Positions 42,578 to 62,549 of a DNA stretch of 64,000 nucleotides are shown here, piece by piece; within the stretch, counting starts at the first letter, position 1, and the number at the start of each line of letters is the position of its first letter. Both the position numbers and the translations under genes were made by a program. The notes beneath the pieces are model-generated. The model was given only the letters and a program-made list of their open reading frames with translations, ran no database searches and had not been told where the DNA came from. The DNA is from Nitrosopumilus sp. (GTDB lineage Archaea; Thermoproteota; Nitrososphaeria; Nitrososphaerales; Nitrosopumilaceae), in the NCBI GenBank assembly GCA_965205675.1, contig OZ242186.1, forward strand, positions 640,001 through 704,000. The letters are read 5' to 3'.

Positions 42578-44269
42578 CTAATAATATTGATGCATTTGTC
42601 GTTGTTCTAATCCTTCTTGCTCAAAATGATTATGTGCTTTTCCACCATCATGATGAGCATGAACATGACCATCAATATGACAATGAGTGTTATCAATTTG
42701 ATTTTTCATAAAGACATCGTCAATATTTAAGATCATATTGGTTGCCTCTACGGCTGTATTGAAAATCTGTTGTTTAACAGCTGCTGTTTCAATAATTTTT
42801 GATAAGGTCATATCTGATATTTTTCTAAAACTATAATCTACTCCATACCATTTAATTTTATTGGTAGAATTTGCAAATTTTGCCCGTAATTGGGTTTTTG
42901 TGTCAATCACATTCATTCCAACATTTCGAGCTAATGTCAATGGAATTTCTTCCACTGAATTTGCAAATCGTTCTAACACAATCTGTTCTTTATTTTCAAT
43001 AGTAGAGGCATGAATTCTGATTTTCTCTGCAATGATTCCTTCAATAGAGCCGGCACCAAATACAATAAATGGACTTTCAATAAAATTTTTCAATACTTTA
43101 AATCCGTTTAAAGCATTCCTATGAATCTCATCCAAATATCGCTTTGAATTGGCTCGCAATAACATGGTGACTGATTTTGGATTAACGCCTTCGACAAATA
43201 TCATTGTGTCTCCACCAATAGTTTTTTTATAAATTTTTTTGGCATGTCCTATTTCGTCAGTAGCTATTTTTTGCATATCCTTACAAGTTTTAGCACCTGT
43301 TGCTTTTTCTAACCACCATAAATCATTGTATTTCACTCTTCGAATCGTAATAATTCCTTTTTGTGCAAGAGCTTCTTGAACAAAGTCATTTATTCCCTTT
43401 CTAGATATTACAACGTTAACATTAGCATCTACAATTTTTTTTACAAGTGCTTCTAAATCCGTATTTTCTTGAATTAAAAATTGACTCATTTGTTCTGGAG
43501 AAGTAATTTCAATTTCAGATTCAGATTTTGTTTTCATTGTCTCTAAGGATTCATTAATTAGTAAAATTTTTGGATTGTCTATACTTTTAGGCATTGCAGG
43601 ACTATCAATGGTTTTATCAAGTACCGTTCCTCTAACTAATTGCGTATCTGAAATATTTCCAATTTTTTCTTCAATTTTGATATCATCAATATTGATATAA
43701 TTATTTTTAAAATCTCTAATGCAAGAAACAGACTCGATTATCAAATCTAAAAGTTTTTCTTGTGAATCGTATAAATCAAAAAGCGTTTTACCATTCAAAC
43801 ATGTGTAAAGTAACTGTTTCATTATTTTTTGATCTAAATTATTTGAACTTATTTTTACATCATCTAATACCTCTAAGGCATAATCAAGGCTTCGTTCATA
43901 ACCTTTTATTATTACAGTGACGGGGATTCCAATGTTTAGCAAATCTTTGGCATTTTCAAGTAACGCGCCTATTAAAATAGCCGAAGATATGGTGCCGTCA
44001 CCCACATGAGTATCTACAGTATTTACTGCTTCTATAACTGATTTAGCTGCAGGATGATCAACATCGACTTTTCTTAAAAATGCGCCACCATGTTTTGTTA
44101 AAGTATCTTCATCCAGTATGTCGATGTATATTTTCGACATACCTCTTGGACCTAAAGATGTTTTAACCAGATCTGTAACAAGTTTTCCAGAAATTAAATT
44201 TAACATTTGTGATTCTTGAATACCGATACGAGAAACATCTTCATCAAGTAAGTCTGGATATTTCATCAC
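42578..44269 (-). CDS. Divergent group II chaperonin (thermosome-like) with His-rich C-terminus
   Basis: SLGPRGM.K, HPAAK, GDGT, MPK.I.NPKIL, IP.TLA.N.G, IL.IDD; tail THCHIDGHVHAHHDGGKAHNHF. Confidence 0.9.
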   Translation of the reverse strand: MMKYPDLLDEDVSRIGIQESQMLNLISGKLVTDLVKTSLGPRGMSKIYIDILDEDTLTKHGGAFLRKVDVDHPAAKSVIEAVNTVDTHVGDGTISSAILIGALLENAKDLLNIGIPVTVIIKGYERSLDYALEVLDDVKISSNNLDQKIMKQLLYTCLNGKTLFDLYDSQEKLLDLIIESVSCIRDFKNNYINIDDIKIEEKIGNISDTQLVRGTVLDKTIDSPAMPKSIDNPKILLINESLETMKTKSESEIEITSPEQMSQFLIQENTDLEALVKKIVDANVNVVISRKGINDFVQEALAQKGIITIRRVKYNDLWWLEKATGAKTCKDMQKIATDEIGHAKKIYKKTIGGDTMIFVEGVNPKSVTMLLRANSKRYLDEIHRNALNGFKVLKNFIESPFIVFGAGSIEGIIAEKIRIHASTIENKEQIVLERFANSVEEIPLTLARNVGMNVIDTKTQLRAKFANSTNKIKWYGVDYSFRKISDMTLSKIIETAAVKQQIFNTAVEATNMILNIDDVFMKNQIDNTHCHIDGHVHAHHDGGKAHNHFEQEGLEQRQMHQYY

Positions 44270-44699: not shown

Positions 44700-45783
44700 T
44701 ACCTTGGAGCATAATTCTTTGCAATTTCTCAAAACAAATAGCAATACTTTTTGATCAGTAGTTAGAAATAATTTCATGGACATCACAAATGACGAGTTAC
44801 TCCAGGCCTACAAAAAAGAAAAAAATATTCACAAAAAAAAAACAAGATTACATGCAATGTGTATAATTAAGATCAACGAATCCACAATTGCTGAAACTGT
44901 CAACCAAATGTTTTGTACCTACAATTCTGTAAGGAATTAGCTTGATTCATTTGAAAAATACGGACTGGAGGATCTCCCTCGTTCTGGCCGTCCGCCATTA
45001 ATTTCACACAAAAAATTACAAAAAATAGAGCGTACATTTAAGAAAATTTCAGATGGAATGACTCCAAAGAAACTGATACAATTCATATTTTACAGAACAC
45101 GCATTACATATCATATCACTCACGTGCGTCGTTTGATGCATAAATGGAATCTAAAACCAAAGGTTCCACAAAAGGTACATGTGCGAGCAGCATCCAAGGA
45201 TACATGCCGCAAGTGGAAAAACCGCATCATTTCACGCATAGAAAAGGCAAAAAAGAAAGGTTTTACAGTATTTATCCAAGACGAGTCTGTATTTGTAGAC
45301 GATGTACGTCTTGGTAAAAAATACTGGACAGATACACATCAACGAATGATTGTACGTTGGAGAGGATCACATCAAAGATTTTTGGTTTATGGAAATGATG
45401 ATAATCAAAGTTTTTTTAGATCGTATGAAAAATTTAATTCAATTGCATTTATAGATTATTTGGAAGCAGCTCGTAGAAAATTTGGAAAAATATTTGTTAT
45501 CATCGATAGAGCGCCACAACACAAAGCTAATGATGTAAAAAAATATCTGCACAAAAACAAAGATGTCAAACTGGCATATCTTCCAAGAGGTTCTCCACAT
45601 TTGAGTATGATTGAAGAGATTTGGAAACAGTGCAAACATGTTAATGTTGAATCAGAATTTTATGAATCTATTCATGAAATGAGGCATATAGTTATGGAAT
45701 ATTTTAGAACGCACAAATTCAATTTGAATATGTATCAGTATTTTGCAAGAACAATAAATTGAAAAGACTTATGATCTGGGGTA
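44700..45783 (+). mobile_element. IS630-family element, copy 1 (transposase inactivated)
   Basis: Ends TACCTTGGAGCATAA ... TTATGATCTGGGGTA flanked by TA; near-identical to 61244..62339; ORF from 44776 has TGG>TAG at 44938 and in-frame indels (+3, -9, -6 bp). Confidence 0.92.
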
Positions 45784-45850
45784 TAATTGCGCAAGAGGCC
45801 TAATACAAATAATGTTGGTGTGGATTAGACTCAGTCAACAAAAAAATGTT

Positions 45851-46066
45851 TCAGATTTGTTGTAGAAACTCTTCTTTTGAGATTTCTGCTTGCTCCAGTA
45901 TTAACTTTAAGGTGGACTCTCTTATTGGAGAATGTCTTGGAACTGGAACAATATTGCCCTTGCTATTTTGTAAAATTATGTGGCTTCCTCTTTGTCTGTT
46001 TGTATGATACCCAAATTTATTTAATGCCTTTATGACATCACGCCAATTGTGGTTTCTCAGACTCAA
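45851..46066 (-). CDS. hicA: HicA mRNA-interferase toxin
   Basis: RQRGSH.IL...VPVPRH.PI...TL..IL.QA.I..EEF. Confidence 0.9.
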   Translation of the reverse strand: MSLRNHNWRDVIKALNKFGYHTNRQRGSHIILQNSKGNIVPVPRHSPIRESTLKLILEQAEISKEEFLQQI

Positions 46067-46281
46067 TTTGGAATCTCTACAACTATCTTTTGATCTGGTT
46101 TTGTTTTTTCCTCAATGGATTCTAGAACTAATGAGATTACTTCTTTCATGTTTACTTCTAGTTGCTCCATTGTGTCTCCTTCACTGATTGCTGCAGGCAA
46201 TTCAAGGCATCGTCCGGTGTATCCACCTTCTGATGATTTGATTACCTGTATAGTGAATTTTCTTGTATTCATGCTTTTCAT
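46063..46281 (-). CDS. hicB: HicB antitoxin (short form)
   Basis: GGY...C.ELP.AISEGDT.E.L..NMKE.I.L.LE; overlaps hicA by 4 nt. Confidence 0.88.
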   Translation of the reverse strand: MKSMNTRKFTIQVIKSSEGGYTGRCLELPAAISEGDTMEQLEVNMKEVISLVLESIEEKTKPDQKIVVEIPN

Positions 46282-46599
46282 TTTCTTGTGTTGTTTCCTT
46301 TCTAAAAAAGATTAGGAATCAAGAATGCGGTTTAATTCTTGCCTTATCTTTTTGAGTGTCTTTTTGTGCTTTCTTTGACGTATTCTGTCTTGTGCTATTC
46401 CTAATTCAACTCGAGCATCTGAAATTATCTTAGATGGATGTCTCAGTTCAATCATCATATGACACGAGGCATTGCAGTGTCTAGTGTTTTTTGTTGCAAT
46501 GCCATGAATTCCATGAACTAAAAATTGATGTATACTAAATAACAAAAATTTGTCACCCTATTCTGAACTCGATTTACGTACATTGTAGATTCAAGTTTA

Positions 46600-47323
46600 A
46601 ATTTCAGGAATTAGTATAATTTGGAAGATTTTGGTTCATGAATATTTGTTAGACAGTATAGTTCAATGCTAAAAGCAGATGGTCCAGTATGGCACAAATC
46701 AGACATTGAACAAAACCGTCTGCCAATATCAGGAATTGACACTGTTGTTCAATGGGGATCTCTAAATCAAAGGGTTGGATATTTGGATACAAACTGCACA
46801 TGAGTTGCAGTACTGGCAAACTGGTTGTTCCTTTATCTGCTAATGTCTCAACTGCAAATGTTTCTGATGGTAAAATGTATTATACAATAATTGAACCGCT
46901 TTCAGGACTGGTTGAGAATATTTTATGTGATCCCGCATATGATGATAAATCATTATATCAGTTTAGCGATGAGAGACATTTGAGATTGATTTGTCCTATC
47001 AAAATATATCCATCAACGCCACCAGAGCGAATCAAACTTGCAGATTTTTATAATTCTGTACAAGGTCAAGAGTTATACTCACAAAGAAAAGTTTCAATTG
47101 AACCCCTCTTTGAGTATCTCAAAGATATTTTTAACATCAGGGTGATGCCAGTAAGAGGATTATACAATGTCAAATCATTTGTGTTGGTTTGTGTTCTTGT
47201 GTATCAGTTGACAGTGTATTACAACTGTATAATTGGGGCAGAGAATCCCAGATTTGTAAAGAGAATGCTTTACTGTTAGAAAATCCCTGAGAATTATTTT
47301 TGTAAATAATTATGCCCAAGTCT
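46600..47323 (+). mobile_element. 5'-truncated IS982/IS5-like DDE transposase relic
   Basis: SSMLKADGPVWHK...WG, frameshift, GWIFGYKLH...TANVSD...CDPAYD...R..SIEP.F..LK. Confidence 0.7.
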
Positions 47324-47486: not shown

Positions 47487-49085
47487 TTATTTTTTCATTG
47501 CATTGTGACTTGTGAGATCATCTCCTGATGTATCTAAAGTATTTGAATCATAACCATTTGGCATGGAATCATCAGCATTTCCAAAGTGTTTCAAATCTTC
47601 ACCTGATATGACATCCTCTTCTGGTGGAACATAATCTCGTACGTCATGTCGCGTTTTTCCAGGATGTGTGTTTTGTGTTGCATATGCAACAATTACAAAT
47701 AATATTGTTGCAATTACTGGAGGAATCATTGTATCTAATCCTGCCCACTCTTCAGGCATGGTAAAGAATAGAATCAATCTAATGGCAGAACCTACAATTA
47801 TTGCCGTTATAGCTGCTGGCATGTTTGCTTTTTTCCAGAATAATCCAAATGTAAGAGGTGCAAATGCGCCTGCAAAAACGATGTCAAAAGCCAAAATTAG
47901 ATAAATTCCAGGAGCTGGGATAAAGTAACCAATTGCAGTTCCAATCACTATCATAGGAATAATGGCAAGTCGTGTTACTTTGAGTAATTTGCTATCACTC
48001 CAATTAGATCTGCCCATCCAACGCCGTCGAATTATTCTTTGCATTAGATTTCTAGATATTACACTTGAAATAGCTAGTAATCCTCCACTAGCTGTAGACA
48101 TTGATGCGCCAATTACACCCATTAGAATTGCAGCCCCAATTGCAAATGGCATAAACTCAGTAGCTAGCACCGGTAATGCTAAATCAGGCATTATGTCAGC
48201 AGGTAAATAATAAAATGCTACAATTCCTAACATGCTGGTTGGGATGACTGTGAACATTGTTAATGCGCCCCCCATCAATGCCCCTCTTTGTGCAGTTTTG
48301 GGGTTCTTTGCTGCAAATACTCTTTCCATAAAGTCAAGTGCAACAATATCTCCCAATCCTAATGCAACAATAGCTCCCCAATTTATCAGTGCTCCATTTG
48401 CAATATCAAACAGCCCTGAAAGATCCATGAATTCAGGAGGCGCATTATTATAAATTACATCCCATGGGGTATCTGAGAATCCGCCAAAGAAGAAAAGGAA
48501 TGCTGCCCAAAATGCACCAATTGCAAGATACACCTGAAATAGATTTGTGTATGCGGATGCAAATAATCCTCCTGCAACTGTATAGATTACTACAACTAGA
48601 GCTGAAATTGCTATTCCGTAAAAATAATTTATTCCAAATACGACTTCTAAAATAAATCCACTAGCTGCTAAATTACCTGCAACAAGAATAAGGAAACTGA
48701 TTATCATTAATATTCCTGATAATCCTTCAGCTCCATTTCCAAATCTTCTAAAATAAAAATCAGGTAATGTAATCATAGACATTCTGTTTAGAGGCTTTGC
48801 ATAAAATGCAGAAACAATAAGCAGACAAGATCCCAAACCAATTGGAATTACTGCACCGGCCCAAAATCCAAATTCAAACGTGAGTGCAATATTTCCTAAT
48901 GTTGAATTTCCATCTACTGCTTGTGCTGCAAGCATTGTTCCTACCATAAAAAGCGGCAAACTTTTTCCAGCAACAATTAATCTTTTCCCACTATTTTTTA
49001 CTAATCTGCCAGCAAACACTCCCACTGCAAGTGTAATTACAATGAATATTGCAACTGCAATGCCAAAACCCTCCAATTCAACCAA
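47487..49085 (-). CDS. Sodium:solute symporter (SSS/SLC5 family)
   Basis: VAGKSLP, ITLPDFY.RRFG, YT..GGL.A..YT...Q, ERVFAAK, ASMSTA; about 13 TM; TTG start. Confidence 0.92.
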   Translation of the reverse strand: MVELEGFGIAVAIFIVITLAVGVFAGRLVKNSGKRLIVAGKSLPLFMVGTMLAAQAVDGNSTLGNIALTFEFGFWAGAVIPIGLGSCLLIVSAFYAKPLNRMSMITLPDFYFRRFGNGAEGLSGILMIISFLILVAGNLAASGFILEVVFGINYFYGIAISALVVVIYTVAGGLFASAYTNLFQVYLAIGAFWAAFLFFFGGFSDTPWDVIYNNAPPEFMDLSGLFDIANGALINWGAIVALGLGDIVALDFMERVFAAKNPKTAQRGALMGGALTMFTVIPTSMLGIVAFYYLPADIMPDLALPVLATEFMPFAIGAAILMGVIGASMSTASGGLLAISSVISRNLMQRIIRRRWMGRSNWSDSKLLKVTRLAIIPMIVIGTAIGYFIPAPGIYLILAFDIVFAGAFAPLTFGLFWKKANMPAAITAIIVGSAIRLILFFTMPEEWAGLDTMIPPVIATILFVIVAYATQNTHPGKTRHDVRDYVPPEEDVISGEDLKHFGNADDSMPNGYDSNTLDTSGDDLTSHNAMKK

Positions 49086-49113
49086 AACAGAAATTTTTAT
49101 AACAAAAAATTAT

Positions 49114-49143
49114 TTAAGTATTAAAAATTTCAAGTAAAGTACG
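49114..49143 (-). promoter_or_regulatory. Shared operator/promoter element upstream of the SSS gene
   Basis: ttaagtattaaaaatttcaagtaaagtacg, 26/30 identical to 55099..55128. Confidence 0.7.
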
Positions 49144-49475
49144 TTTTATGAATATAGTTTCATATGTATGATATCATTTGACATAAAATTTATAATTATT
49201 GTAGTAATTTATTGTAAAAAATAATAATTAAAGATAAAAACTACTATTGATTCAATAATGGAATATAATAAAACACACAATTTTTTTTTGATTTAATTCG
49301 TATAATACATTTATTTTAAAATTTTTAAAAAAAACTATCATTTTAAAAAAATAATTTGTAAAAAGAATATCTCATTGCATCTAATTATAAAATAATAACA
49401 TTCAACAGAAATTTTTAAAAAATTAGATTTCGAAAAAATATAAATTTAATTAGTTAACTGGTACGATTATTCCCT

Positions 49476-49637
49476 ATGGATAAACAATATGCGTTGGCAG
49501 TAATTTTAATTATATTGGGAGTTGGTTTAAGTCAATCTGGAACAACTAATGCTTTTTACAGTGGCCTTGGAATTGGAATTATAGGATTAGGAATATTTTG
49601 GGTAATAATTCGGTTAATTAAAGAATTAAAAAGATAG
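49476..49637 (+). CDS. Small two-TM membrane protein (53 aa)
   Basis: MDKQYALAVILIILGVGLSQSGTTNAFYSGLGIGIIGLGIFWVIIRLIKELKR; below the track cutoff. Confidence 0.65.
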   Translation: MDKQYALAVILIILGVGLSQSGTTNAFYSGLGIGIIGLGIFWVIIRLIKELKR

Positions 49638-49699
49638 ATCGTTTTATTTTTAAAAATTAACATAATAAAATAATATAAGTATCACCTAGAATAAAAATT

Positions 49700-50218
49700 A
49701 TGCCTGCAAAAGGATATTCTACAATAGGAATGAAACCTGCAGTAATATCAGAATTACAAGACGTTACAGATAGAAATTATCTAGGAATGTTTCTACCTAG
49801 CACTCTAATCATCATGATGAATGAAATTAAAGCCGAACGATACTCGGTGCATTCCCACAAATTAAGATTAGATTTGACAGGGCGATACAATTCAATTACA
49901 ATAAGATCAGATGTAAAAGAATGGTTGCAGGATAATTATAAAATACTGAATCAAGAATACTTGGACAAATATAGAATTACTTGTTTTACAAAATTTGTTA
50001 GCTATTTTCTAGTTAATGTAATTGAATCAAAAAATGATTCTCAAAACAATACCTTAAATCTAAAAGAGGCAGATTTTAAATTTCTTCATAAAGAATACCA
50101 AAAACAAAAAAAGGCTTTAAAAAATGAAATGAAATTAAATTTTGAGCAATTTGTAGATAATTACATTAGTGAATTATTTGATAGAATAAAAATGGCAAAA
50201 AAAGCTTTAACTGTCTAA
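49700..50218 (+). CDS. Hypothetical protein, possibly a repeated RHH-like DNA-binding protein
   Basis: Three related segments (YSTIGMK..V.SEL / YNSITIR..VKEWL / NTLNLK..DFKFL), each followed by helices. Confidence 0.6.
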   Translation: MPAKGYSTIGMKPAVISELQDVTDRNYLGMFLPSTLIIMMNEIKAERYSVHSHKLRLDLTGRYNSITIRSDVKEWLQDNYKILNQEYLDKYRITCFTKFVSYFLVNVIESKNDSQNNTLNLKEADFKFLHKEYQKQKKALKNEMKLNFEQFVDNYISELFDRIKMAKKALTV

Positions 50219-50228
50219 AAATAAAAAA

Positions 50229-50480
50229 TCAAAGAGGAGTCATAGTATCAATCAATCTTGCATTAACTATATGCCCATCTTTCTCCTGAATCTCAAGATC
50301 TACGGTGTATTTCAATGCATTTAACATGAAATTAACTTGTACATCCCAACCTCTTCTAGTTCCTTTTTCAGGAATTGCAAATGTTTCATTTATTTTGAAA
50401 TCATTTACATCACCATAAAGAGCAGTTATTGCTTTTTGAGATGCATTGTGAATTTCTTCAACAGTACTTACTTGTTGCAT
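50229..50480 (-). CDS. PepSY-like small protein
   Basis: A...A....Y, W.V.V.F.....Y...I....G.I pattern. Confidence 0.55.
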   Translation of the reverse strand: MQQVSTVEEIHNASQKAITALYGDVNDFKINETFAIPEKGTRRGWDVQVNFMLNALKYTVDLEIQEKDGHIVNARLIDTMTPL

Positions 50481-50559
50481 AAAAGTAAATAAAAAAACAA
50501 ATATAAAAATTTTTATTATTTTTTTAAAATTTATTGTATCCTAAAATTAGTTTGTCTTT

Positions 50560-51250
50560 TACTCTGTATGGTATTTTTCTCCTAGCTGCTTACAACAAAT
50601 GCGATTTTCTTCTTTGCCATCTTTTGCATGAATGCTTTAGCTAGCGTTTTAAGATGATTATTCTCATCAAATAGCATGTGTGATTTTGTGTAATTGTGCC
50701 AATCAGTTAATTCGTTTATCACATCAAACCATTTTTGCTTTCTCTGAATCTCACTGTAAAATTGTCTTAGCTTACTGTTTGTCTAAAGATGACTCAGCAT
50801 AGTAGCTAGAATGTGCTTAATTTTTAATGTTGTTCATTCTCGCTCAAACTCTGATGAATTTTTTTGTATTGTGATTTTTTTGCATAAAACTGAAAACTAT
50901 GATTAGTTGGAACTGATTCAGATTTATCGTGTTTTGTAATTGTTTTTTTGAGTATTATAATTGCATTATTTCAAGTTGCATTTGTAAGCACTTTGTAATT
51001 GATGATGAATTGTAATACTCTATTCTGATAACAAATTAGCCAATTATCTGAGAATTTACAATCAGTATGTTGCATAAAATTGGAATATGTCTTCTCATAT
51101 CTTCATGAAATCAACAACCGTTGTATTTCACATTCCATTTTTTTAAATACTCTGATTATCTGCAATACTTTGGTTGGATCTAGTTTTTGCACGACTAGAT
51201 GATTCCTGTCTCTCTGCCCTATGCGTATCTTGATTTTAGTCTAGATGCCA
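50560..51250 (-). mobile_element. IS481-family transposase relic
   Basis: Degraded pieces QKLDPTKVLQII, NHSFQFYA, SSEFERE, IKHILA, QT.SKL..FYSEIQRK, W.NYTK.HM, KT.AKAF..KM. Confidence 0.6.
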
Positions 51251-51342
51251 TGAGTTAATTTCAGAACAATGGACTGGTGTATTTATTAATTAAAATATAA
51301 GAATCTAAGAAAGTATAATTTGTTAAAAATATACAGATATGC

Positions 51343-51828
51343 ATGCTGGAAATTCACGCACCAGACGGAAATATCTTTCTAGACCAAGAATTTGACAAAC
51401 TAAAAGATGAAAATTTTGAGAAACTAAAAATCTCACGAACTGATTTGGAAAAAAGAATTCTGAGAAGAAAGACAGATCGTGGAACAGATATTGGTTTGAA
51501 TTTAGACCCTGGAATAAAACTTTGCAATGGAGATATCATAAAAAACAACAATATGAAAATTATAATAGAGCAATTACCTGAAAAAGTAATTTTAATAAAA
51601 CTAAAAACCAAAAGTATTGTAGATGTGATGGTACTTTTAGGTCATATTATTGGAAACAGGCATAGGCCAATATCAATTCAGGAAGATGAGATAATGTTTC
51701 CAATTCAAACAGATTCAGAACAAGAAATATTTACAAAACTGTTTCATAATATTATAGATCATATTGAGATAAAAGTAGATGAGAGAATATTTCTTCCACA
51801 TTTGGGTGCTAACATACATGAACATTGA
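51343..51828 (+). CDS. ureE: Urease accessory Ni chaperone UreE
   Basis: KR..R..TD.G.DIG......L..GD, LGH.IGNRH.P, C-terminal HEH. Confidence 0.9.
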   Translation: MLEIHAPDGNIFLDQEFDKLKDENFEKLKISRTDLEKRILRRKTDRGTDIGLNLDPGIKLCNGDIIKNNNMKIIIEQLPEKVILIKLKTKSIVDVMVLLGHIIGNRHRPISIQEDEIMFPIQTDSEQEIFTKLFHNIIDHIEIKVDERIFLPHLGANIHEH

Positions 51829-52519
51829 TGATGTGGAACAAGAGCTTGGAGCCATGCAGCTATCTGACTCTTTTTTTCCTATCGGTATTTTTACAACATC
51901 AAACGGAGTAGAGCTTCTTTTTACAGAAAAAAAGATTCAAGGAGTGTCTGACTTGATAAATTTGATTAGAGTTAACATTATTCAACAGATTGCTCCTACA
52001 GACTGCGTAATACTTGCAAATGCTTTTGAGGATGCCAAGAGCGGTGACCTTGATAAAGTAATTGAAATAGATAGTATTGGGTTTGCCACAAAATCTATAA
52101 AAGAGATACGCGATGCATCTGTAAGATCAGGCATTCAGTTAATCCGATGTGTATCAGAGTTTGTGCAGGATAATGAAATTCTAAACCAATACAAAAATAA
52201 ATTATCCGAAAAAAAAACACATGGTATATTTCCTGTTGCATTTGCCATCTGCTGTAATGCATTAAATATTAAAAAAGAAAAAAGCATGATGATGATGCTA
52301 TATGGTTTTACTGTGGGTATGGTCAGTGCTGCATTAAGACTGGGATTGATACAGCACTTTGAGGCTCAAAAAATTATTCATAGTACAAAACCTGTTATCA
52401 GTCAGAGTATCAAAGAGTGTTCAAACAAGTCCATTTTAGAGATATGGCAGTTTACCCCTCAAATGGACATAACTCAAATGTCTCATGAAAAAATGGATTC
52501 TAAAATGTTTATTACATGA
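51818..52519 (+). CDS. ureF: Urease accessory protein UreF
   Basis: QLSDSFFP.G.F..S.G.E, S...G.QL, AALRL......AQ, HE...SKMFIT; start overlaps the ureE stop. Confidence 0.92.
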   Translation: MNIDDVEQELGAMQLSDSFFPIGIFTTSNGVELLFTEKKIQGVSDLINLIRVNIIQQIAPTDCVILANAFEDAKSGDLDKVIEIDSIGFATKSIKEIRDASVRSGIQLIRCVSEFVQDNEILNQYKNKLSEKKTHGIFPVAFAICCNALNIKKEKSMMMMLYGFTVGMVSAALRLGLIQHFEAQKIIHSTKPVISQSIKECSNKSILEIWQFTPQMDITQMSHEKMDSKMFIT

Positions 52520-52536
52520 ATTTTGGTTTTTTCATT

Positions 52537-52578
52537 ATGAATCATATGCCAAAAATTGGAAATGTTGCAATTGGATGA
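52537..52578 (+). pseudogene. Possible ureG 5' stub
   Basis: ATG 17 nt after ureF encoding MNHMPKIG..., similar to UreG starts, but it stops before any GxVGSGKT loop. Confidence 0.35.
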
Positions 52579-52836
52579 TTCATTAGAATCATATCCTCTG
52601 GAAAAATATTTGTAGAAATTGATGAGGCATTTTGCGAACAATGTCTCTAGTTGTCTTTATATTTTTTATTGGATGATTATTTCTTTGCTTGTTTTATGAT
52701 AAAGTTTCAAATGGAATAATCTACTAGTCTTTACATCAATTATACTTTTGATATAATCTACAAAAATAAGCTAATTTTTTCATATTCTTTTAAAATATTT
52801 GATTTCACTTTTAGAACTGTTTCCTATCATAAAATT

Positions 52837-53056
52837 TCATTTTACAACCACAAGATTGAAATCTTAGATTCATGCACTACGGAATTTACAACACTGCCAA
52901 GTAATTTCCATCTCATGCCGCCAAGTCCTTTTGAACCAATAATGATCATTGTTACACATGTAATTTTTACGTTATATGGTATGGCAAGTGAAGTTGCAGT
53001 ATCTGGTCTTTTTCTGATGTACCTGAAATATCTAATGCAACCAAAATATTTTTCAT
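52837..53056 (-). pseudogene. Universal stress protein (UspA) relic with internal deletion
   Basis: MKNILVALDISGTS...ITCV joined to MIIIGSKGLGG....LGSV...VVH.SKISIL. Confidence 0.7.
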
Positions 53057-53090
53057 TTTTATCTTCTAGTTAATTAAATTGTTTCTATAA

Positions 53091-53105
53091 TTCAGGTAAA
53101 GTACG
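53091..53105 (-). promoter_or_regulatory. Third copy of the shared operator core, upstream of the uspA relic
   Basis: ttcaggtaaagtacg, 14/15 identical to the SSS-promoter core. Confidence 0.55.
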
Positions 53106-53116
53106 AATTTATTTTT

Positions 53117-53875
53117 TTATAAAAATGTAATTAATTTAGCATTTAATAAAACTGTAAATATAATATTTAATCCGATAATAAAACTAATACCTGATACAAT
53201 ATATTTCAAATATTTTGTAGTTTGTTTGATTTTAGATACTAGTGCAAATGGTACGCCAATTATTCCACTAATGGTTATCATTCCAAAAGTACTTCCGATA
53301 CCAAATAAAATTAAAAAATAAAGCATTGTTTCAAAATTAATCATTGTGGAAGCAGTTAATGCTACAAAACTACCGCTTCCTGCAATGCCGTGAATACAAC
53401 CTATCCAGAATGTTTTGTGACTATGATCTTGACTATGATCTTCTTCATGATTGTGAAAATGTGTGTGTGAAATTCCATTTGAATGATTATGTGGATGAAT
53501 ATGCTTTTGTTTGAAAATCTTTTTGTTAGAAACTGTTAAAATCCCTAAAACAATTAACATGAATCCCACAATTAATTCTGCACCTAGAAAAAAATCACTA
53601 TGTATATTTAATGACAAACTTGCAATTACTAATCCAACTAATATGATACTTGACGTATGTCCAATTCCCCATACTGCCCCTCTCAATGAAGAAATCACAC
53701 TCAATTGTTTTAATGCTAATTTTTTTGAATTATTTCTATTCTTAATTAATAGTTGGGTTGAAACTGCACTGATATGGTCCGGTTCAAAGGCATGAATTAA
53801 TCCAATCATTAAACCTGCCATAATTACCAAAAAAGGATTGTTTAGTTGTAGTACTTCAATCAAGTTATCAATCAT
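53117..53875 (-). CDS. UreH/HoxN-like high-affinity nickel permease
   Basis: HAFEPDH, WG.GHT, His-rich loop (HIHPHNH...HTHFHNH), G.IHG.AGS. Confidence 0.9.
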   Translation of the reverse strand: MIDNLIEVLQLNNPFLVIMAGLMIGLIHAFEPDHISAVSTQLLIKNRNNSKKLALKQLSVISSLRGAVWGIGHTSSIILVGLVIASLSLNIHSDFFLGAELIVGFMLIVLGILTVSNKKIFKQKHIHPHNHSNGISHTHFHNHEEDHSQDHSHKTFWIGCIHGIAGSGSFVALTASTMINFETMLYFLILFGIGSTFGMITISGIIGVPFALVSKIKQTTKYLKYIVSGISFIIGLNIIFTVLLNAKLITFL

Positions 53876-53958
53876 TTGTTTAACCTTTATCCAAACAATA
53901 GATTTTCATAAAATAATGATATCTCACCATGTTCTTTATCTGCAAACATTTTTTCCCA

Positions 53959-55074
53959 TCAATCTCTTTTTGGAATCTTAGCTTGTGGGTTTCCAAAATT
54001 ATATGTATTTCCAGTACCCTTGTAGTCTTTTGGTCTTACAGGGTCTCCTCCATCTAGCCCTCTTTTTGTTAATGACAATCCTGCTAGCAATTCAACTACT
54101 AATCTTTGACCTAATCCTGAGGTAATGCCTCCATTGTAGGAGCTATTATCACTAACATCATAAGCAGGAGCAATCTCTACTAAATCCATTGCAAATCTAT
54201 CTGGATCAAATGATTTGGATAATTGACGTATCATTCTAATTCCTTCTCTTGATGTAAGTCCGTTTGGTTCTGGTTCTCCAGTTCCAGGTGCATAAGAGGG
54301 ATCAAAAGAATCAATATCCCAACTAAGATAAACTGCATCTGTTCCATCATTGGCTCTATCAGCTATTTCTTTTGCAATATAATCAATTCCTAATTCTTCT
54401 ACATCCAACATTGTAAACCACTGGAAATCTTGATCAGACATCCATTTGTACAAATCCCGTCCTGGCCAATATCCTCTTGGACCGACTAGGGAATAATTTT
54501 TCCCCTTTAGACATCCCATCTCCATTATTCTTCTAATATGTGCCCCGTGATCATACTTGAATCCAGTTAATCCCTGTGGCGCACAATCAGCATGAGTATC
54601 AAAATGAATCATGCCTATATTTTTAAATTTCTTCTGAAAAGCTCTGACATTTGCATATGTTATAGAGTGATCTCCTCCAAGCATTACTGGAATTCCATCT
54701 GCCTCTAAAACTTCTTTGACCTTTAGGGTCATACTTTTGTGAGATCCAATTACATCTCCTGGTGAGACAACTACGTCTCCATAATCCACTGTTCGAAAAG
54801 TACCAAATGGATCAGCACCAGTTTCAATATTAAATCTCTCAAAAGGGGGAGATGGAATGGTAGAAGCCGCTCTAATTGCTCGTGGACCATATCTTGCTCC
54901 GGGGCGGATAGTGGTACCAAAATCAAATGGCTCTCCAATAATTGCAACATCTGGTTTTGCTTTTAGTAATTCTTTATGGTCTTTAATCCATGGCAAATGT
55001 AAAAATGTATTAATTCCTACAAATGGCGCAACATCTGGACCTTGAAAATCCTCACCATAAAATTCTGCACCCAT
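53959..55074 (-). CDS. Ureohydrolase (agmatinase/guanidino-acid hydrolase superfamily)
   Basis: RPGARYGP.AIR, GGDHS, DTHAD, DID..DP..APGTGEPEP.G, DLVE.AP.YD. Confidence 0.93.
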   Translation of the reverse strand: MGAEFYGEDFQGPDVAPFVGINTFLHLPWIKDHKELLKAKPDVAIIGEPFDFGTTIRPGARYGPRAIRAASTIPSPPFERFNIETGADPFGTFRTVDYGDVVVSPGDVIGSHKSMTLKVKEVLEADGIPVMLGGDHSITYANVRAFQKKFKNIGMIHFDTHADCAPQGLTGFKYDHGAHIRRIMEMGCLKGKNYSLVGPRGYWPGRDLYKWMSDQDFQWFTMLDVEELGIDYIAKEIADRANDGTDAVYLSWDIDSFDPSYAPGTGEPEPNGLTSREGIRMIRQLSKSFDPDRFAMDLVEIAPAYDVSDNSSYNGGITSGLGQRLVVELLAGLSLTKRGLDGGDPVRPKDYKGTGNTYNFGNPQAKIPKRD

Positions 55075-55098
55075 AACAATCAGTTTTAATTACTAATT

Positions 55099-55128
55099 TT
55101 AATTATTAAATATTTCAAGTAATATACG
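55099..55128 (-). promoter_or_regulatory. Shared operator/promoter element upstream of the ureohydrolase
   Basis: ttaattattaaatatttcaagtaatatacg, 26/30 identical to 49114..49143. Confidence 0.7.
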
Positions 55129-55232: not shown

Positions 55233-56471
55233 ATGTTATTAAAAAAATCAAAAAACGCTTGGTATTTTTTAAATCAGGGATTAATTGCCGTTCATTATAA
55301 TCAATTTAAAAAAGCAATTTCTTATTTTGATAAAGCTATTTTATTGGAACCTAAAAATATGGTTTTACAACTTCATAAAGGTCTTACCTTACATAAAATT
55401 AAAAATTTTCGAGATGCAATAGTTTGCTATGATGATATACTCTGCAATGATCCAAAAAATTTAGATGCTTTGTATAACAAGGGAATTGCATTTGAAGCTA
55501 TGGGGCAACCCCATGATGCAATTGATTGTTTTAAAAAATCCTTTGCGATTGACTCTACATTTTCTAATTCATTAATTTCATTAGGAATATGTTTTAGTAA
55601 ACTGGGTGATCATGAAAAAGCACTTGAACTGACAGACGATGCTCTTTCTAATAATCCAAATAATGCCGAAGCCCTTTATAATAAAAGCTTGATTTTGGGT
55701 AGATTGCACCGTAATTCCGAGTCATTGATATTTTTTAATAAGGCAATTGATGAGGACGCTTATCAATCTAATATCCTATTTGAAAAAGGACAGAAACTAA
55801 CAAAAGAAAAAAAACATGAAGAAGCAATAAGATACTATACTAGATCTTTGGAAGTAGATAAAAAAAATACAAAAGCATTGGTTGCTAAAGGGTGGATCCT
55901 TGATTTTGCAGGATTTTCTAACAAAGATATTTTTGCTTTTTATGATGAGGCCATTAAAATTGATCCAAAGTGTACTGATGCATTATTTAATAAAGGAATA
56001 GTGCTAAATAAAACTGGATTACACAAAAAAGCTATAGTTTGTTTTGATAAAATTTTAGAATATGATCCTGAAAATATTAGAGCTCTTTATAGTAAAGGCG
56101 TGGCCTACATGTCATTGAAAAATATTGGCAAGGCAAAATCTTATTGTGAATTTGCACTAAATATTGAACCCGATAATGTTGTTGCCTTGTGTACCATGGT
56201 TTGGTGTCTGGAACATTCCAAGAAATATAACGAAGCGCTTGTCTACTGTGATAGGGCACTTAAAATTGAGCCAAACTATGTTTATGCCATAAGTTACAAA
56301 GCTAAATTATTTCTATTATTAAAAAACTATAAAGAATCACTTAGTTGGTATGATAAAGCATTAAAAATTGAACCTAATAACCAACCAGCGATTTTTCATA
56401 GATATAAAGTTGTAGCAGAATTAGATAAAAGAAACAAAGAATCTTTTTTTAAAAAAATTATGAAATTATAA
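55233..56471 (+). CDS. Tetratricopeptide repeat protein (about 11 repeats)
   Basis: Repeated AL.NKG..L......A...FD.A....P units. Confidence 0.9.
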   Translation: MLLKKSKNAWYFLNQGLIAVHYNQFKKAISYFDKAILLEPKNMVLQLHKGLTLHKIKNFRDAIVCYDDILCNDPKNLDALYNKGIAFEAMGQPHDAIDCFKKSFAIDSTFSNSLISLGICFSKLGDHEKALELTDDALSNNPNNAEALYNKSLILGRLHRNSESLIFFNKAIDEDAYQSNILFEKGQKLTKEKKHEEAIRYYTRSLEVDKKNTKALVAKGWILDFAGFSNKDIFAFYDEAIKIDPKCTDALFNKGIVLNKTGLHKKAIVCFDKILEYDPENIRALYSKGVAYMSLKNIGKAKSYCEFALNIEPDNVVALCTMVWCLEHSKKYNEALVYCDRALKIEPNYVYAISYKAKLFLLLKNYKESLSWYDKALKIEPNNQPAIFHRYKVVAELDKRNKESFFKKIMKL

Positions 56472-56473
56472 TC

Positions 56474-56845
56474 CAGTACTTGGGAAAGTAATCCAATTTA
56501 GATCATAAACTAACCATTATTTCATCAGTTAAACAACAAATTTGGATAGAACAATCTTGAAGGAGATGTGCTTCTCCATCAAATGTGAATCATAGCAATC
56601 TTGATTTTGCACACATTAGAAATTCAACAATTCAAGCATTTGCAAATATTGCTAAAATAATGTGCACAACGTTGTTGTTTTCATACCGAAAAACAACGCA
56701 CTATACAATTCAGAGGACATTCCTCATTTTATCATGGAATGTTGCCTTGGTGACTGTTATTCTGAATCAACTACAAAGAAATTGAAGATAAGGACTGAAT
56801 GTGTTATTCCATCAGGCTCTTGGATTAGAAAGCAGATCGTAAAAA
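56474..56845 (+). mobile_element. Truncated left part of a diverged ISH3/IS4-like element
   Basis: Begins CAGTACTTGGGAAAGTAATCCAATTTAGATC, matching the left end at 56910; carries a homologous transposase N-terminus (CLGDCYSES...PSGSWIRK). Confidence 0.7.
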
Positions 56846-56909
56846 TATACCTCCTAACATAAGTTCGTCAACCATCTTCTCATTGCATATACTTGAGAAT
56901 GTCTAAATT
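56846..56909 (-). mobile_element. Right-end fragment of another IS630-like element
   Basis: TATACCTCCTAACATAAGTTCGTCAAC resembles the IS630 ends at 61242 and 62533; minus strand encodes NLDILKY. Confidence 0.5.
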
Positions 56910-58228
56910 CAGTAGATGGGAAAGTAACTCAATTTAGATCAAAAACTATCAATCACTCAATCAATCTATTCAGATAGAAAAAGCTTGATGGAAGTATGTC
57001 ACTCCATCAAATATGCATTGTACTTCATTTGATACCATGACACACCAAGGCGTGATACTATCTAAAGCATTTGAGATTATCACTAAAATAATGTACAATA
57101 TCTTGTTGTTTCCATGCTCTAGTAAAAATAACTCACGGTTCCACAATGCAGATGCACATAATTCTGTCATGTCATTGTGTTTGGGAAATTCATATTCTGA
57201 ATCTGGATTAAAGAGACTGGCGATGGAATCAGATAATGCTTCTCCAACTGGTTTCATGGTTGAGAAAAATCATATCAAAAATATCACAAAAAACAATGCA
57301 AATTCAATTACATCGTTCACTGGATAGTACAGTATCAAAATTACAAGAACTGGGAGTATTGGAACAACCAGTTACTGTAGCAATTGACAAACATCTAATC
57401 CCAAGATATGACAAATTGCCAAACCATTCTTTAATAAAATCAAAATCTAAAAACAGTACTACTCATTTTGAGAGTTACTGCACCATGCAGTGCGTTGAAA
57501 AAAGAATCAGGGCTCAATTAGGTTGTTATCCTTTGTATGACAACAAATCAAATGCCGATTTTGTGCGTAAATTACTCTCTGATGGCATCAATAATGGAAT
57601 CAAGATTAAACTATTGCTAGTGGATAGGGAGTTTTTCACAGCTGGAACAATTTCAGAAATAAAACAAAAGAATCTGAAATTTCTAATGCCTGCATAAAAG
57701 AATTCTCGAATCAAAGATGCAATTGTACAATACGTTAATGGAGATAGAAAGTCAATCTCGCCATACACAATAAAATCATCATCAGGACATGTAGAATCAT
57801 TTACTCTAGTTATTCTGCCAAACAAAAATGCAAGAAAAAAATCAGATATTATTGATCAGTATGTTGTGTTTGCAACAAATATTTCACCAAAAGAAATATC
57901 ATATAACATACAAAACATTCCAACTGACTACAAGAAACGTTGGGGATTGAAACAGGCTATGCATGTGTGGGAAGGTTCAGACCAAAAACCACCAGTTCAA
58001 ACCAATCCATAAGATTGTTGTATTTTTACTATTCATTGATTTTGTACAATGCATGGATAATTGCTAATTTGATTATCTCAGAAGAAACTAATGTAAAAAA
58101 TCACAAACCAATAATATCAATTGAAATTCTCAAATATTTCTTTGTAAAGATAATTATTCATTATTTTAGAAATAACAAAAATAATTATTTTCTAGAATGT
58201 GTAACTTGAGTTACTTTCCCATCTACTG
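56910..58228 (+). mobile_element. ISH3-family (IS4 superfamily) element with disrupted transposase
   Basis: Perfect 23-bp TIR CAGTAGATGGGAAAGTAACTCAA (56910-56932 / 58206-58228); VAID, LLVDREFF, Y..RW.IETGY motifs; frameshifts and a TAA at 57695; no matching target duplication. Confidence 0.88.
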
Positions 58229-58253
58229 ACACTACAGATCTTTTCACTGATTA

Positions 58254-59002
58254 ATTTCAATCCTATAATAGTTCGATTCAAACCAAAATCTCAGATGGTA
58301 ATGTTGCAGTGATCGCACTATTTCAATCCTATAATAATTCGATTCAAACATTAATAATTTCTGATATTCATTTGAATCATACAAAATTTCAATCCTATAA
58401 TAGTTCGATTCAAACTTGTGCCGAAACTACTAAACTTCTTATCAATTAAGAATTTCAATCCTATAATAGTTCGATTCAAACATGCAAATTGCGTTAACAC
58501 TCGTAATTATCGGATCATTTCAATCCTATAATAGTTCGATTCAAACGAAATAATCATGCGAAAAATCATAATGTCTGATGAATTTCAATCCTATAATAGT
58601 TCGATTCAAACTGGCAGTTCCTCATCATCCACTATTTCACCGTTTATTTCAATCCTATAATAGTTCGATTCAAACATATATAAAAGAACAACACAAGGTA
58701 CTGGTGATGAATTTCAATCCTATAATAGTTCGATTCAAACTCGCTGTAGTTGCTGTCTTACGTCAAATGCAGTTAATATTTCAATCCTATAATAGTTCGA
58801 TTCAAACTGGGCAGATTTAGTCAAGGCGGTAAATTCTATGAATTTCAATCCTATAATAGTTCGATTCAAACTTTCTGCAGTAGATGTATGATTTTTTTGG
58901 CACATAATTTCAATCCTATAATAGTTCGATTCAAACGCAATAGGGTATGATCATGGCACAATATCAAGAACAATTTCAATCCTATAATAGTTCGATTCAA
59001 AC
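58254..59002 (-). CRISPR. CRISPR array: 12 x 30-bp repeats, 11 spacers of 34-37 bp
   Basis: Repeat (minus strand) GTTTGAATCGAACTATTATAGGATTGAAAT; copies start at 58254, 58320 (one SNP), 58386, 58452, 58517, 58582, 58646, 58711, 58778, 58842, 58907, 58973; the ATTGAAAN 3' handle implies minus-strand transcription. Confidence 0.98.
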
Positions 59003-59157
59003 CCGCCAAATTTATGCCTAAATCAAGATATCAAACGTTTGTATTTTTATCTACCTATGATCGTGCTGATTCCTTATAAGGTCAGCAAAGACATCATTGC
59101 ATCTGTTATCATTTTAGAATAGTTTAAGATAAAAACCGTTCTGTTTGAGTAACAATA
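59003..59157 (-). promoter_or_regulatory. CRISPR leader, shared divergently with the cas4 upstream region
   Basis: AT-rich non-coding region at the inferred 5' end of the array. Confidence 0.7.
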
Positions 59158-59649
59158 TTGAATGACACAACTGAATTGACGGGCACTCAGTTTAACTACT
59201 ATTTTGTGTGTAAAAGAAAACTATGGCTTCACTCCCGCAATATTTCCTTTGAATCAAGCTCAGAGATTGTAAAACTTGGGAGCCTCATACATAAGGACTC
59301 TTACAAAAGAAAGAAAAAAGAGATACGCATAGGCAGCATATCTATTGACTATATTGACAAGGGAAAGATACACGAAGTAAAAAAATCAGACAAGATGCAT
59401 GATGCACACACATATCAATTACTGTATTATATTCACTATCTGAGAAAGCTCGGCATTGATACAACTGGAGTACTGGACTATCCAAAACTCAAAAAGACAG
59501 TAAAGGTAACACTCACAAAACAAAAGCAGGATTTTATACATGAAACAATAAACCATGCATTGGAAATAATCTCTGCAAAAAAACCACTTGCTGCAGAATA
59601 CAAGCCAATATGTGACAAATGCGCATATGCAGAATACTGTTGGTCATGA
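59158..59649 (+). CDS. cas4: CRISPR-associated Cas4
   Basis: YYFVC.RKLW, G..IH..SY, EVKKS, QL.YY, C.KCAY.E.C. Confidence 0.95.
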   Translation: MNDTTELTGTQFNYYFVCKRKLWLHSRNISFESSSEIVKLGSLIHKDSYKRKKKEIRIGSISIDYIDKGKIHEVKKSDKMHDAHTYQLLYYIHYLRKLGIDTTGVLDYPKLKKTVKVTLTKQKQDFIHETINHALEIISAKKPLAAEYKPICDKCAYAEYCWS

Positions 59650-60632
59650 AGGATTACTATATTTTTAGTGGTGGCAGAGTATCACGATCACAAAATACTA
59701 TCCAAATACTATCAAAAGACAATACAAAAAAATCAATTCCTGTGATGGATGTCAGCGCTTTGCACATATTTGGTCAGTGTGACTTTAACTCTGCACTGAT
59801 ATCATTCTTAAACACAAAAGGAATTACAGTACATTTTTACAATTATTATGGAAACTATGCCGGAAGCTATTATCCGCGTGAGAAACTTCTCTCAGGACTG
59901 GTTACAGTAAAGCAAGTGCAACATTATCTGGATAATCAAAAAAGACTATATCTTGCATCTGAATTCATCACATCAGCGACGCATAACATGCTTGCAAACC
60001 TGCGTTACTACAAATCAAAGAAAAAGGATGTGGTTGAGCATATGAATAAAATTCAGATTCTGCAGCAGCAAATACCGAGATACAAAAAAATTGAAGAGTT
60101 GATGGGAATCGAGGGAAATTGCCGAAATATTTACTATGACTCATTTGATAATTTTCTAAGGGATGGTTTTGAGATGGAAAAAAGATCAAGGATGCCTCCC
60201 AAAAATATGCTGAATTCTCTGATATCATTTGGCAATGGAATGATGTATAGCGATGTTCTCACTGAAATTTATCAATCACAGTTAAACACCACTGTAAGCT
60301 ATCTGCATGAACCAGGATACAGGCGCCATTCTCTCTCTTTGGATATCGCAGAAATATTCAAGCCAGTAGTTGTGGATAAGACCATCTTTAAGATGATAAA
60401 TAGTAAAATGATAAATGAAAAAAACTTTGATGACTCCCTAAATGGTTGCTATTTGGCAGAATCGGGAAGAAAGTCCTTTGTATCAGAGTACAATGAAAAG
60501 ATGGAAAGTACAATCTATGTATCTTCATTAAAGCGAAATGTAAGCTACAGGAGACTGATAAGGCTAGAATGTCACAAGATAGTAAAGCATATCGTAGAGG
60601 GTATACGGTATGAGGGATTCAGGCAAAAGTAA
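59646..60632 (+). CDS. cas1: CRISPR-associated Cas1 (type I-B-like)
   Basis: Start MKDYYIFS.G at 59646; HFYNYYG.Y.GS.YPRE, LMGIEG, PP.N..NSLISFGN, YLHEP..RR.SL.LDIAEIFKP. Confidence 0.95.
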   Translation: MKDYYIFSGGRVSRSQNTIQILSKDNTKKSIPVMDVSALHIFGQCDFNSALISFLNTKGITVHFYNYYGNYAGSYYPREKLLSGLVTVKQVQHYLDNQKRLYLASEFITSATHNMLANLRYYKSKKKDVVEHMNKIQILQQQIPRYKKIEELMGIEGNCRNIYYDSFDNFLRDGFEMEKRSRMPPKNMLNSLISFGNGMMYSDVLTEIYQSQLNTTVSYLHEPGYRRHSLSLDIAEIFKPVVVDKTIFKMINSKMINEKNFDDSLNGCYLAESGRKSFVSEYNEKMESTIYVSSLKRNVSYRRLIRLECHKIVKHIVEGIRYEGFRQK

Positions 60633-60895
60633 TGTATGCCATATTGGTGTATGATATTTCCATAGATCGCATAGATGCTGTGCGAGTCACGACAAAGCAA
60701 TATCTCAACTGGATTCAAAACTCGGTGTTTGAAGGAGAGATAACAATGTCTGGACTTGCAGAACTAAAATCCAAAATATTTAGACTGATTGATGTGTCTA
60801 AAGATTCGGTGCTTATCTTTACTGTGAACAATCCAAAATGGATAGAGAAGACAATCATTGGAATCGATAAGAACGACACAGGCAACATCATCTAA
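60632..60895 (+). CDS. cas2: CRISPR-associated Cas2
   Basis: ILVYDI, YL.WIQNSVFEG, DSV.IF. Confidence 0.95.
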   Translation: MYAILVYDISIDRIDAVRVTTKQYLNWIQNSVFEGEITMSGLAELKSKIFRLIDVSKDSVLIFTVNNPKWIEKTIIGIDKNDTGNII

Positions 60896-60909
60896 ATTTT
60901 GATTTGCCT

Positions 60910-62533: not shown

Positions 62534-62549
62534 ATTAAACAACTGTAAT

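Follow-up and report, generated by a model that had tools for sequence, protein, structure and literature searches.

The stretch of DNA considered here comprises 64,000 nucleotides of a Nitrosopumilus sp. (contig OZ242186.1 of assembly GCA_965205675.1, positions 640,001-704,000 of the forward strand); we refer to it as the window and count positions from its first letter, except where genome coordinates are marked C1. Within it, the gene for a 371-aa ureohydrolase precedes that for a 252-aa membrane protein in the same orientation, with a gap of 83 bp between them, and ureE, ureF and an SSS-family symporter are nearby. This arrangement agrees with the original prediction, which had proposed a nickel-dependent system for the uptake and hydrolysis of a guanidino compound at positions 47487-55128; the genes are those it named, while the module they belong to is larger and includes a thermosome subunit and a TPR protein beyond these limits (Table 1). 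Our verdict is that this is a real, ancient and co-regulated module, which would work like the route of the guanidine hydrolase GdmH but is not a member of the GdmH family. The host genome is complete (2.01 Mb) and carries amoA. As to whether a urease is encoded elsewhere, ureABC is found intact about 800 kb from the window, together with ureG, ureD and two DUR3 transporters.

Placement of the hydrolase

The six metal ligands of an arginase-type binuclear site, already noted in the original prediction, are all present in the hydrolase (H136, D159, H161, D163, D253 and D255), and its profile match to PF00491 (266.9 bits) is above the cut-off. The predicted structure (pLDDT 88) has the arginase fold, with TM scores of 0.75-0.79 to 9FEK, 3NIO and 7ESR; the closest relatives with known structures, at 30-34% identity, are GdmH, GbuA and the comammox guanidinase, and the enzymes of the GdmH pathway give the best matches in sequence and fold. 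The substrate pocket had been described as atypical, and alignment with solved structures substantiates this: the hydrolase displays HGAH at 176-179, PGTGEPEP at 263-270 and an SDNSSYNGG insertion, where GdmH has HTCP and PGTGWPEP, and GbuA and GpuA have PGTGTPE together with HGTT or HGTP.

Although databases annotate the protein as an agmatinase, it scores below the agmatinase cut-offs (152.3 vs 174.3 bits for TIGR01230, 203.3 vs 302 bits for PRK02190) as well as those for formimidoylglutamase and arginase, and the SpeB pocket motifs HGT and PGTGTP are replaced by HGAH and PGTGEPEP. We therefore reject its assignment as a standard agmatinase SpeB, including the standard manganese enzyme considered in the original prediction. 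With SpeB, GbuA and GpuA it has in common the fold, the six metal ligands and the catalytic His and Glu, but it differs from them in its pocket motifs, its loop insertion, its sub-cut-off agmatinase score and the absence of carbon-catabolism genes from the module.

The hydrolase is not a GdmH orthologue either. Thr97 of GdmH is kept as Thr55, although a Thr is also present in GpuA and is thus not GdmH-specific, whereas Trp305, described in the cited part of PMC11410670 as one of two residues conferring GdmH specificity, is replaced by Glu267. As a wide tree, calculated from the 142 of 147 sequences that passed a coverage filter, included no Trp-type GdmH, a second, small tree was built; there, the hydrolase clade is monophyletic with an ultrafast bootstrap (UFBoot) of 100 and stands apart from two PGTGWPEP proteins, with weak deep nodes. 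In the wide tree, its nearest sister groups retain HGTP and PGTGTPEP. Forming a distinct clade that is inherited together with the SSS and urease, the hydrolase is supported on sequence grounds as a new specificity class of the ureohydrolase fold, in line with what had been suggested. We found no literature characterising this clade in a search that left subscription journals largely outside.

The signature HGA[HW], PGTGEPEP and SYNGG defines one well-supported clade, which extends beyond the ammonia-oxidising archaea (AOA) to haloarchaea, Ca. Scalindua, Thermodesulfovibrio and Aquificaceae, and thus to marine, soil, hot-spring and hypersaline lineages. The previously suggested host-derived substrate does not accord with this distribution and is rejected. 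In haloarchaea, the order is SSS, AbrB/PhoU regulator, hydrolase, with an SSS relative in 44 of 51 loci; 43 of these loci were submitted to a test for ureC, which was found in 42 of the 43 hydrolase genomes, against 43/151 in a class sample. The order is hydrolase, SSS, porin on a Scalindua-like contig, and hydrolase, SsuA-family ABC importer, ureG, ureD at two Aquificae-type loci. A conserved carbon-skeleton gene is found in none of the AOA, haloarchaeal, Scalindua-like or Aquificae-type neighbourhoods, which fits a substrate yielding nitrogen only. Near its module, Haloarcula encodes an additional chaperonin with a His tail, and a formamidase gene adjoins both the module of Haloarcula marismortui (locus L240, 5881-7152) and a GdmH-SSS pair in Rubrobacter (locus L254, 7559-8803).

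Inheritance, regulation and metal supply

Co-inheritance was followed across 151 genomes sampled evenly from the family Nitrosopumilaceae; as these genomes are related, the counts are not independent and are descriptive rather than tests. The hydrolase is present in 66 genomes and 18 of 27 genera (76-94% identity for full-length matches) and the SSS in 64, with both together in 63, and they are at most 10 kb apart in 54 of the 55 cases in which they share a contig. Urease follows with ureC in 64 of the 66 hydrolase genomes, while 19 urease genomes are devoid of the hydrolase. The thermosome subunit, whose conserved tail (42578-42720) is rich in His/Cys, in contrast to the Gly/Met-rich tails of the two housekeeping thermosomes, occurs in 62 of the 66, but in only two of the 19 urease-only genomes, both fragmentary. 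In relatives, the module is rounded out by the TPR gene, the 83-aa gene (at 31 of 42 clustered loci, compared with 32 for the hydrolase) and usually a UreA-like gene, and the 172-aa protein is found in 55 genomes, 53 of them with the hydrolase. The divergent UreA(gamma)-like gene directly follows the hydrolase in most relatives; it is missing from this place in the window (53876-53958) and in a few other genomes, and so seems to be dispensable. A HypA gene, considered for the 400-bp gap behind the hydrolase of relatives, was rejected, as this gap holds the UreA(gamma)-like gene. Class-wide, the hydrolase is encoded in 54 of 201 genomes, distributed over three families; that of the window is 87-96% identical to those of five relatives, exceeding the identity of UreC in four. 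All four seawater RNA runs inspected contain contigs related to both the SSS and the hydrolase, which is weak evidence at best, as the hydrolase stretch itself served to select the runs, their word shares were small and a contig is no proof of transcription.

A promoter element common to hydrolase and transporter had also been predicted, and it is identified here as the palindrome CGTA-N3-TAC(G), located directly upstream of the TATA boxes of both genes. CGTA-N3-TAC occurs six times in the window, two of these in a repeated insertion sequence (IS) element, against an expected 0.94, and none of 100 shuffles reaches six. In relatives, the palindrome is found in 24/31 hydrolase and 20/29 SSS upstream regions, from which the pattern itself was derived, and in none of the upstream regions of ureA or ureA-like genes (0/34), ureE (0/14) and the permease (0/30). 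With a matrix built from the hydrolase sites of 25 relatives, the SSS site of the window ranks first in the genome, the site at the decayed universal stress protein gene fourth and the hydrolase site fourteenth. The likeness of the 172-aa protein to ribbon-helix-helix regulators (scores 0.83-0.86) is a lead only, and it is our guess that this protein binds the palindrome.

Which metal does the hydrolase employ? The ureE-ureF pair of the window could be taken as dedicated nickel delivery for the hydrolase, an assignment that we reject. The copies inside the urease cluster (C1:1488634-1489672) are broken by many stops and frameshifts, and the window genes, which align with them at about 67% DNA identity, are paralogues of these and the only intact copies in the genome. 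They thus serve the urease, and are not specific evidence for the metal of the hydrolase. In close relatives a full ure cluster adjoins the module, and we infer reciprocal decay of two ure clusters as the simplest history.

The permease, in contrast, does not track with urease only, as in the outcome opposed to the original prediction, but follows the hydrolase: the two are within 5 kb of each other in 51 of 54 cases, and among the 12 genomes whose ureC is more than 90 kb off, 10 keep them within 6 kb. Of the 19 urease-only genomes, 14 lack the permease. Its designation as a UreH/HoxN nickel permease is based on a His-rich loop and an HAFEPDH motif, which we take to match the His-x-Asp/Glu-x-Asp-His consensus of UreH/NiCoT permeases; this family label is weak. 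Further in favour of nickel are the His-tailed thermosome that follows the module, with its parallel in the nickel-binding tail of Helicobacter HspA, and the Aquificae ureG-ureD genes in line with the hydrolase. The guanidine hydrolases characterised in the published accounts drawn on here use nickel. Several observations weigh against it. The window permease has no Pfam match, PF03824 included, and a weak match to RcnA (E 2e-4), and two of three orthologues tested match NicO below its cut-off; 12 of the 66 hydrolase genomes lack the permease, while 13 genomes carry it with neither urease nor hydrolase (e.g. L072-L075, L078), where we can only guess at another metal need, such as cobalt. In addition, no HypA above the cut-off and no HypB were found in this genome, nor any nickel-delivery gene beside the hydrolase at haloarchaeal and Scalindua-like loci. 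On balance, nickel appears somewhat more probable than manganese.

Table 1. Features of the module and its surroundings; window positions, except where C1 marks genome coordinates
Feature	Position	Strand	Remark
Third thermosome subunit	42578..44269	-	C-terminal tail conserved and rich in His/Cys; candidate chaperone for folding or metal within the module
SSS symporter	47487..49085	-	probable guanidinium importer
CGTA-N3-TAC palindrome, operator-like	49134..49143	-	directly upstream of SSS TATA box; second copy 49299-49308
53-aa membrane protein	49476..49637	+	kept in many module copies
172-aa protein	49700..50218	+	ribbon-helix-helix-like lead; candidate regulator
83-aa conserved protein	50229..50480	-	function unassigned; no conserved His or Cys
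ureE	51343..51828	+	only intact copy in genome; urease maturation, outside module core
ureF	51779..52519, probable start 51818	+	only intact copy
ureG remnant	about 52537-52578		short, after ureF
Universal stress protein gene, decayed	52851..53105, start about 53056	-	third palindrome 53096-53105
UreH/NiCoT-like permease, 252 aa	53117..53875	-	putative Ni or Co uptake
Ureohydrolase, 371 aa	53959..55074	-	uncharacterised clade (HGA[HW], PGTGEPEP, SYNGG); probable guanidine hydrolase
CGTA-N3-TAC palindrome	55119..55128	-	directly upstream of hydrolase TATA box
TPR protein	55233..56471	+	divergent from hydrolase; conserved in module
Urease	C1:1489764-1492149		genome coordinates

The module is interrupted by intact or decayed IS elements with many genomic copies (44776-47279, 50594-51282, 56470-58209 and 61265-62263), and beyond it a CRISPR array of 12 repeats precedes cas4, cas1 and cas2, which an IS element separates from a Cas3-like helicase (58231-63881). 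On the other side, the module is adjoined by a deoxyhypusine synthase gene (40963-41916); a second gene resembling it is found at C1:1511220-1512269, and similar ones flank the module in several relatives. An aldolase-like open reading frame with a long C-terminal Asn/Lys/Pro-rich repeat extension is located at 3010-4164.

Substrate of the module

What can be discerned about the substrate? It cannot be named from the enzyme alone, as Thr97 of GdmH is kept while Trp305 is replaced by Glu; to this extent the earlier statement that it is not readable from the sequence stands. Overall, however, the relatives of the transporters narrow it down. Among the best 20 of 190 records in a search of a plasmid collection with the SSS, seven are at 36-38% identity: four are haloarchaeal, with the hydrolase also present, and the three bacterial ones are all linked to guanidine. 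The Rubrobacter locus combines a guanidine-I riboswitch, a true GdmH (PGTGWPEP), the SSS and urease; in Acaryochloris, a guanidine-I riboswitch is located about 90 bp upstream of the SSS; and in Nonomuraea a divergent GdmH-type gene lies beside the SSS, with no riboswitch above the gathering score. Neither of two controls at 28-29% identity is accompanied by a guanidine riboswitch or GdmH. The three bacterial SSSs form one clade with those of the module (UFBoot 92; 100 for the grouping with the haloarchaeal ones), and have D58, N60 and D251 in common with them, residues absent from the controls and DUR3. The module SSS does not branch with DUR3 but falls into a separate clade, with 19% identity to two DUR3 urea transporters, and is nearest to cation (choline) transporters, with conserved acids where those have aromatic residues. 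On the Acaryochloris plasmid pREB7 (locus L255, 4458-8503), an ammonium transporter is followed by the guanidine-I riboswitch and the SSS, apparently a bacterial guanidine importer of SSS type that has not been described before.

The Aquificae binding protein is of a different family, and a search of the PDB with it retrieves taurine and sulfonate binders only. Its two best sequence matches (44% and 49%) are located in guanidine-I riboswitch operons with UAAP1/UAAP2, one of them with the guanidine carboxylase in view. Thus, two unrelated importer types accompany the hydrolase, and the nearest relatives of both are guanidine-regulated, which narrows the substrate to free guanidine; the guanidine-I riboswitch binds guanidine, not methylguanidine, according to the cited part of PMC12508155. 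We accordingly regard free guanidine as the leading, and a rather probable, substrate.

Besides Glu267 and the position of the enzyme outside the clade of GdmH-type proteins, several points weigh against guanidine. No guanidine riboswitch was found at the window or six related loci, and a third match of the Aquificae binding protein (38%, Chondrocystis) is without a guanidine link. Transporters may switch substrate at 37% identity, and the bacterial SSS relatives inspected number only three. Moreover, the passages cited from two genome screens (PMC11410670, from 2024, and PMC12625717) report no guanidine genes in AOA, a negative that is weakened by the fact that both sought known families. It is the missing Trp, the 37% identity of the SSS and the small sample that keep our confidence from being higher.

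Among the alternatives, hydrolysis of methylguanidine or another small alkylguanidine to urea and an excreted amine is unlikely, if worth considering. Glu267 is smaller than Trp305 and, when mapped by its offset from the DxD motif, would be on the loop in which residues 289-291 tell dimethylguanidine hydrolase and metformin hydrolase apart; methylguanidine could pass a guanidine-type importer, and the linkage to urease fits it equally well. However, relatives of the transporter are under the control of the guanidine-I riboswitch, which discriminates against methylguanidine, or beside GdmH, and no methylamine-use genes are conserved near the module in AOA and haloarchaeal neighbourhoods. Still less likely is that the enzyme serves catabolism as a second agmatinase or as an aminoalkyl-guanidine hydrolase that scavenges agmatine, with an SSS importing agmatine or urea, as read in PMC11131427. 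The database name, the HGTP and PGTGTPEP motifs of the sister groups, the deoxyhypusine synthase genes near some modules and the potential of Glu267 to bind a distal amine would agree with it, but the score is below the TIGR01230 cut-off (152 vs 174 bits), the SSS is only 19% identical to DUR3, no putrescine-use genes are nearby, and the only other ureohydrolase in the genome (C1:823170, 130 kb away), assuming it is active, can cover polyamine synthesis.

Another amidino or ureido compound, such as formamidine, guanylurea, cyanoguanidine or an oxidised-guanine product, is improbable: formamidase adjoins the Haloarcula module and the Rubrobacter GdmH-SSS pair and the pocket matches no characterised member, yet formamidase was not seen in AOA neighbourhoods and the tight urease linkage points to urea as product. 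A guanidino acid (creatine, guanidinoacetate, taurocyamine or guanidinobutyrate), which might come from animal hosts, is the least probable, for while GbuA and GpuA are among the best PDB matches and the Aquificae binding protein belongs to a sulfonate/taurine family, the SSS is nearest to cation transporters, an acid at 267 disfavours an anionic tail, and the clade is common in free-living lineages.

We thus return to free guanidine and to the scenario that we consider probable from the comparative evidence, a guanidine importer and a hydrolase that evolved independently of GdmH-type systems and together feed urease. The SSS would import guanidinium by cation symport, and the binuclear hydrolase, following the chemistry of its family, would split guanidine into urea and ammonia. 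Urease, matured with the ureE-ureF of the window, would free two more ammonia, and the resulting three per guanidine would enter ammonia oxidation or assimilation. Importer and hydrolase would be co-regulated via the palindrome next to their TATA boxes, and nickel may enter through the UreH-like permease, with the His-tailed thermosome perhaps taking part in its handling. As the enzyme is not a GdmH orthologue, its activity on guanidine would be convergent, with Glu267 and the extra loops shaping the pocket instead of Trp305.

Relation to known systems and significance

The GdmH pathway (Synechocystis Sll1077, 7ESR/7OI1; Nitrospira inopinata guanidinase, 9FEK) likewise combines a ureohydrolase, an importer and urease, a linkage that is present in the module, where the specificity of the importer is deduced from its relatives. 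The two systems also touch directly, as the GdmH genes of Rubrobacter and Nonomuraea adjoin SSSs of the module clade, and the importer of the Aquificae version is an SsuA-family ABC system, like that for guanidine in Synechocystis. In contrast to GdmH, the hydrolase forms a separate clade at 30-34% identity with Glu for Trp305, and is accompanied by neither HypA/HypB, which are also absent from comammox, nor a riboswitch; instead, the module comprises a palindrome in the DNA, a thermosome with a His tail and, in most cases, a UreA-like gene. MfmAB/MefH and DmgH are nickel ureohydrolases encoded with a nickel permease near urease genes, to which the putative permease and the urease linkage of the module would correspond, but are heteromers of two tandem paralogues with Asn for an active-site His, whereas the module has a single gene and His176.

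In AOA, the system may have been encountered before. In metagenome-assembled genomes of soil Nitrososphaera, an SSS forms a cluster with an 'agmatinase', and expression has been reported; the cited part of PMC11131427 interprets the two as a urea transporter of low affinity and a normal agmatinase. This pair is probably the present module. Most AOA hold two to three speB copies (PMC10753782, as cited in part). Urea and cyanate were the only alternative ammonia sources confirmed for ammonia oxidisers before comammox growth on guanidine was described, and no AOA strain is listed among those tested (PMC11410670, in the passages cited). Further literature was drawn on in part (PMC11399263, PMC10927577, PMC12623156, PMC6790972, PMC8390497 and bioRxiv 10.1101/2025.03.14.643060).

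Our wider proposal, which may equally well prove right or wrong, is that of a second, independently evolved guanidinase family, with an SSS importer, a DNA-operator regulator replacing the riboswitch and a thermosome as metal chaperone. Guanidine use would then extend to approximately 30-45% of AOA, marine anammox Scalindua, many haloarchaea and some Aquificae, and AOA could grow on guanidine as sole source of energy and nitrogen. If so, the ureohydrolase fold would have found a second route to guanidine specificity, and niche models, expectations for fertiliser and wastewater, and the annotation of AOA 'agmatinase' copies would change. Much of the marine and soil AOA, together with marine anammox bacteria, could draw on guanidine, which for the AOA, as abundant nitrifiers, would be an energy source they were thought to lack.

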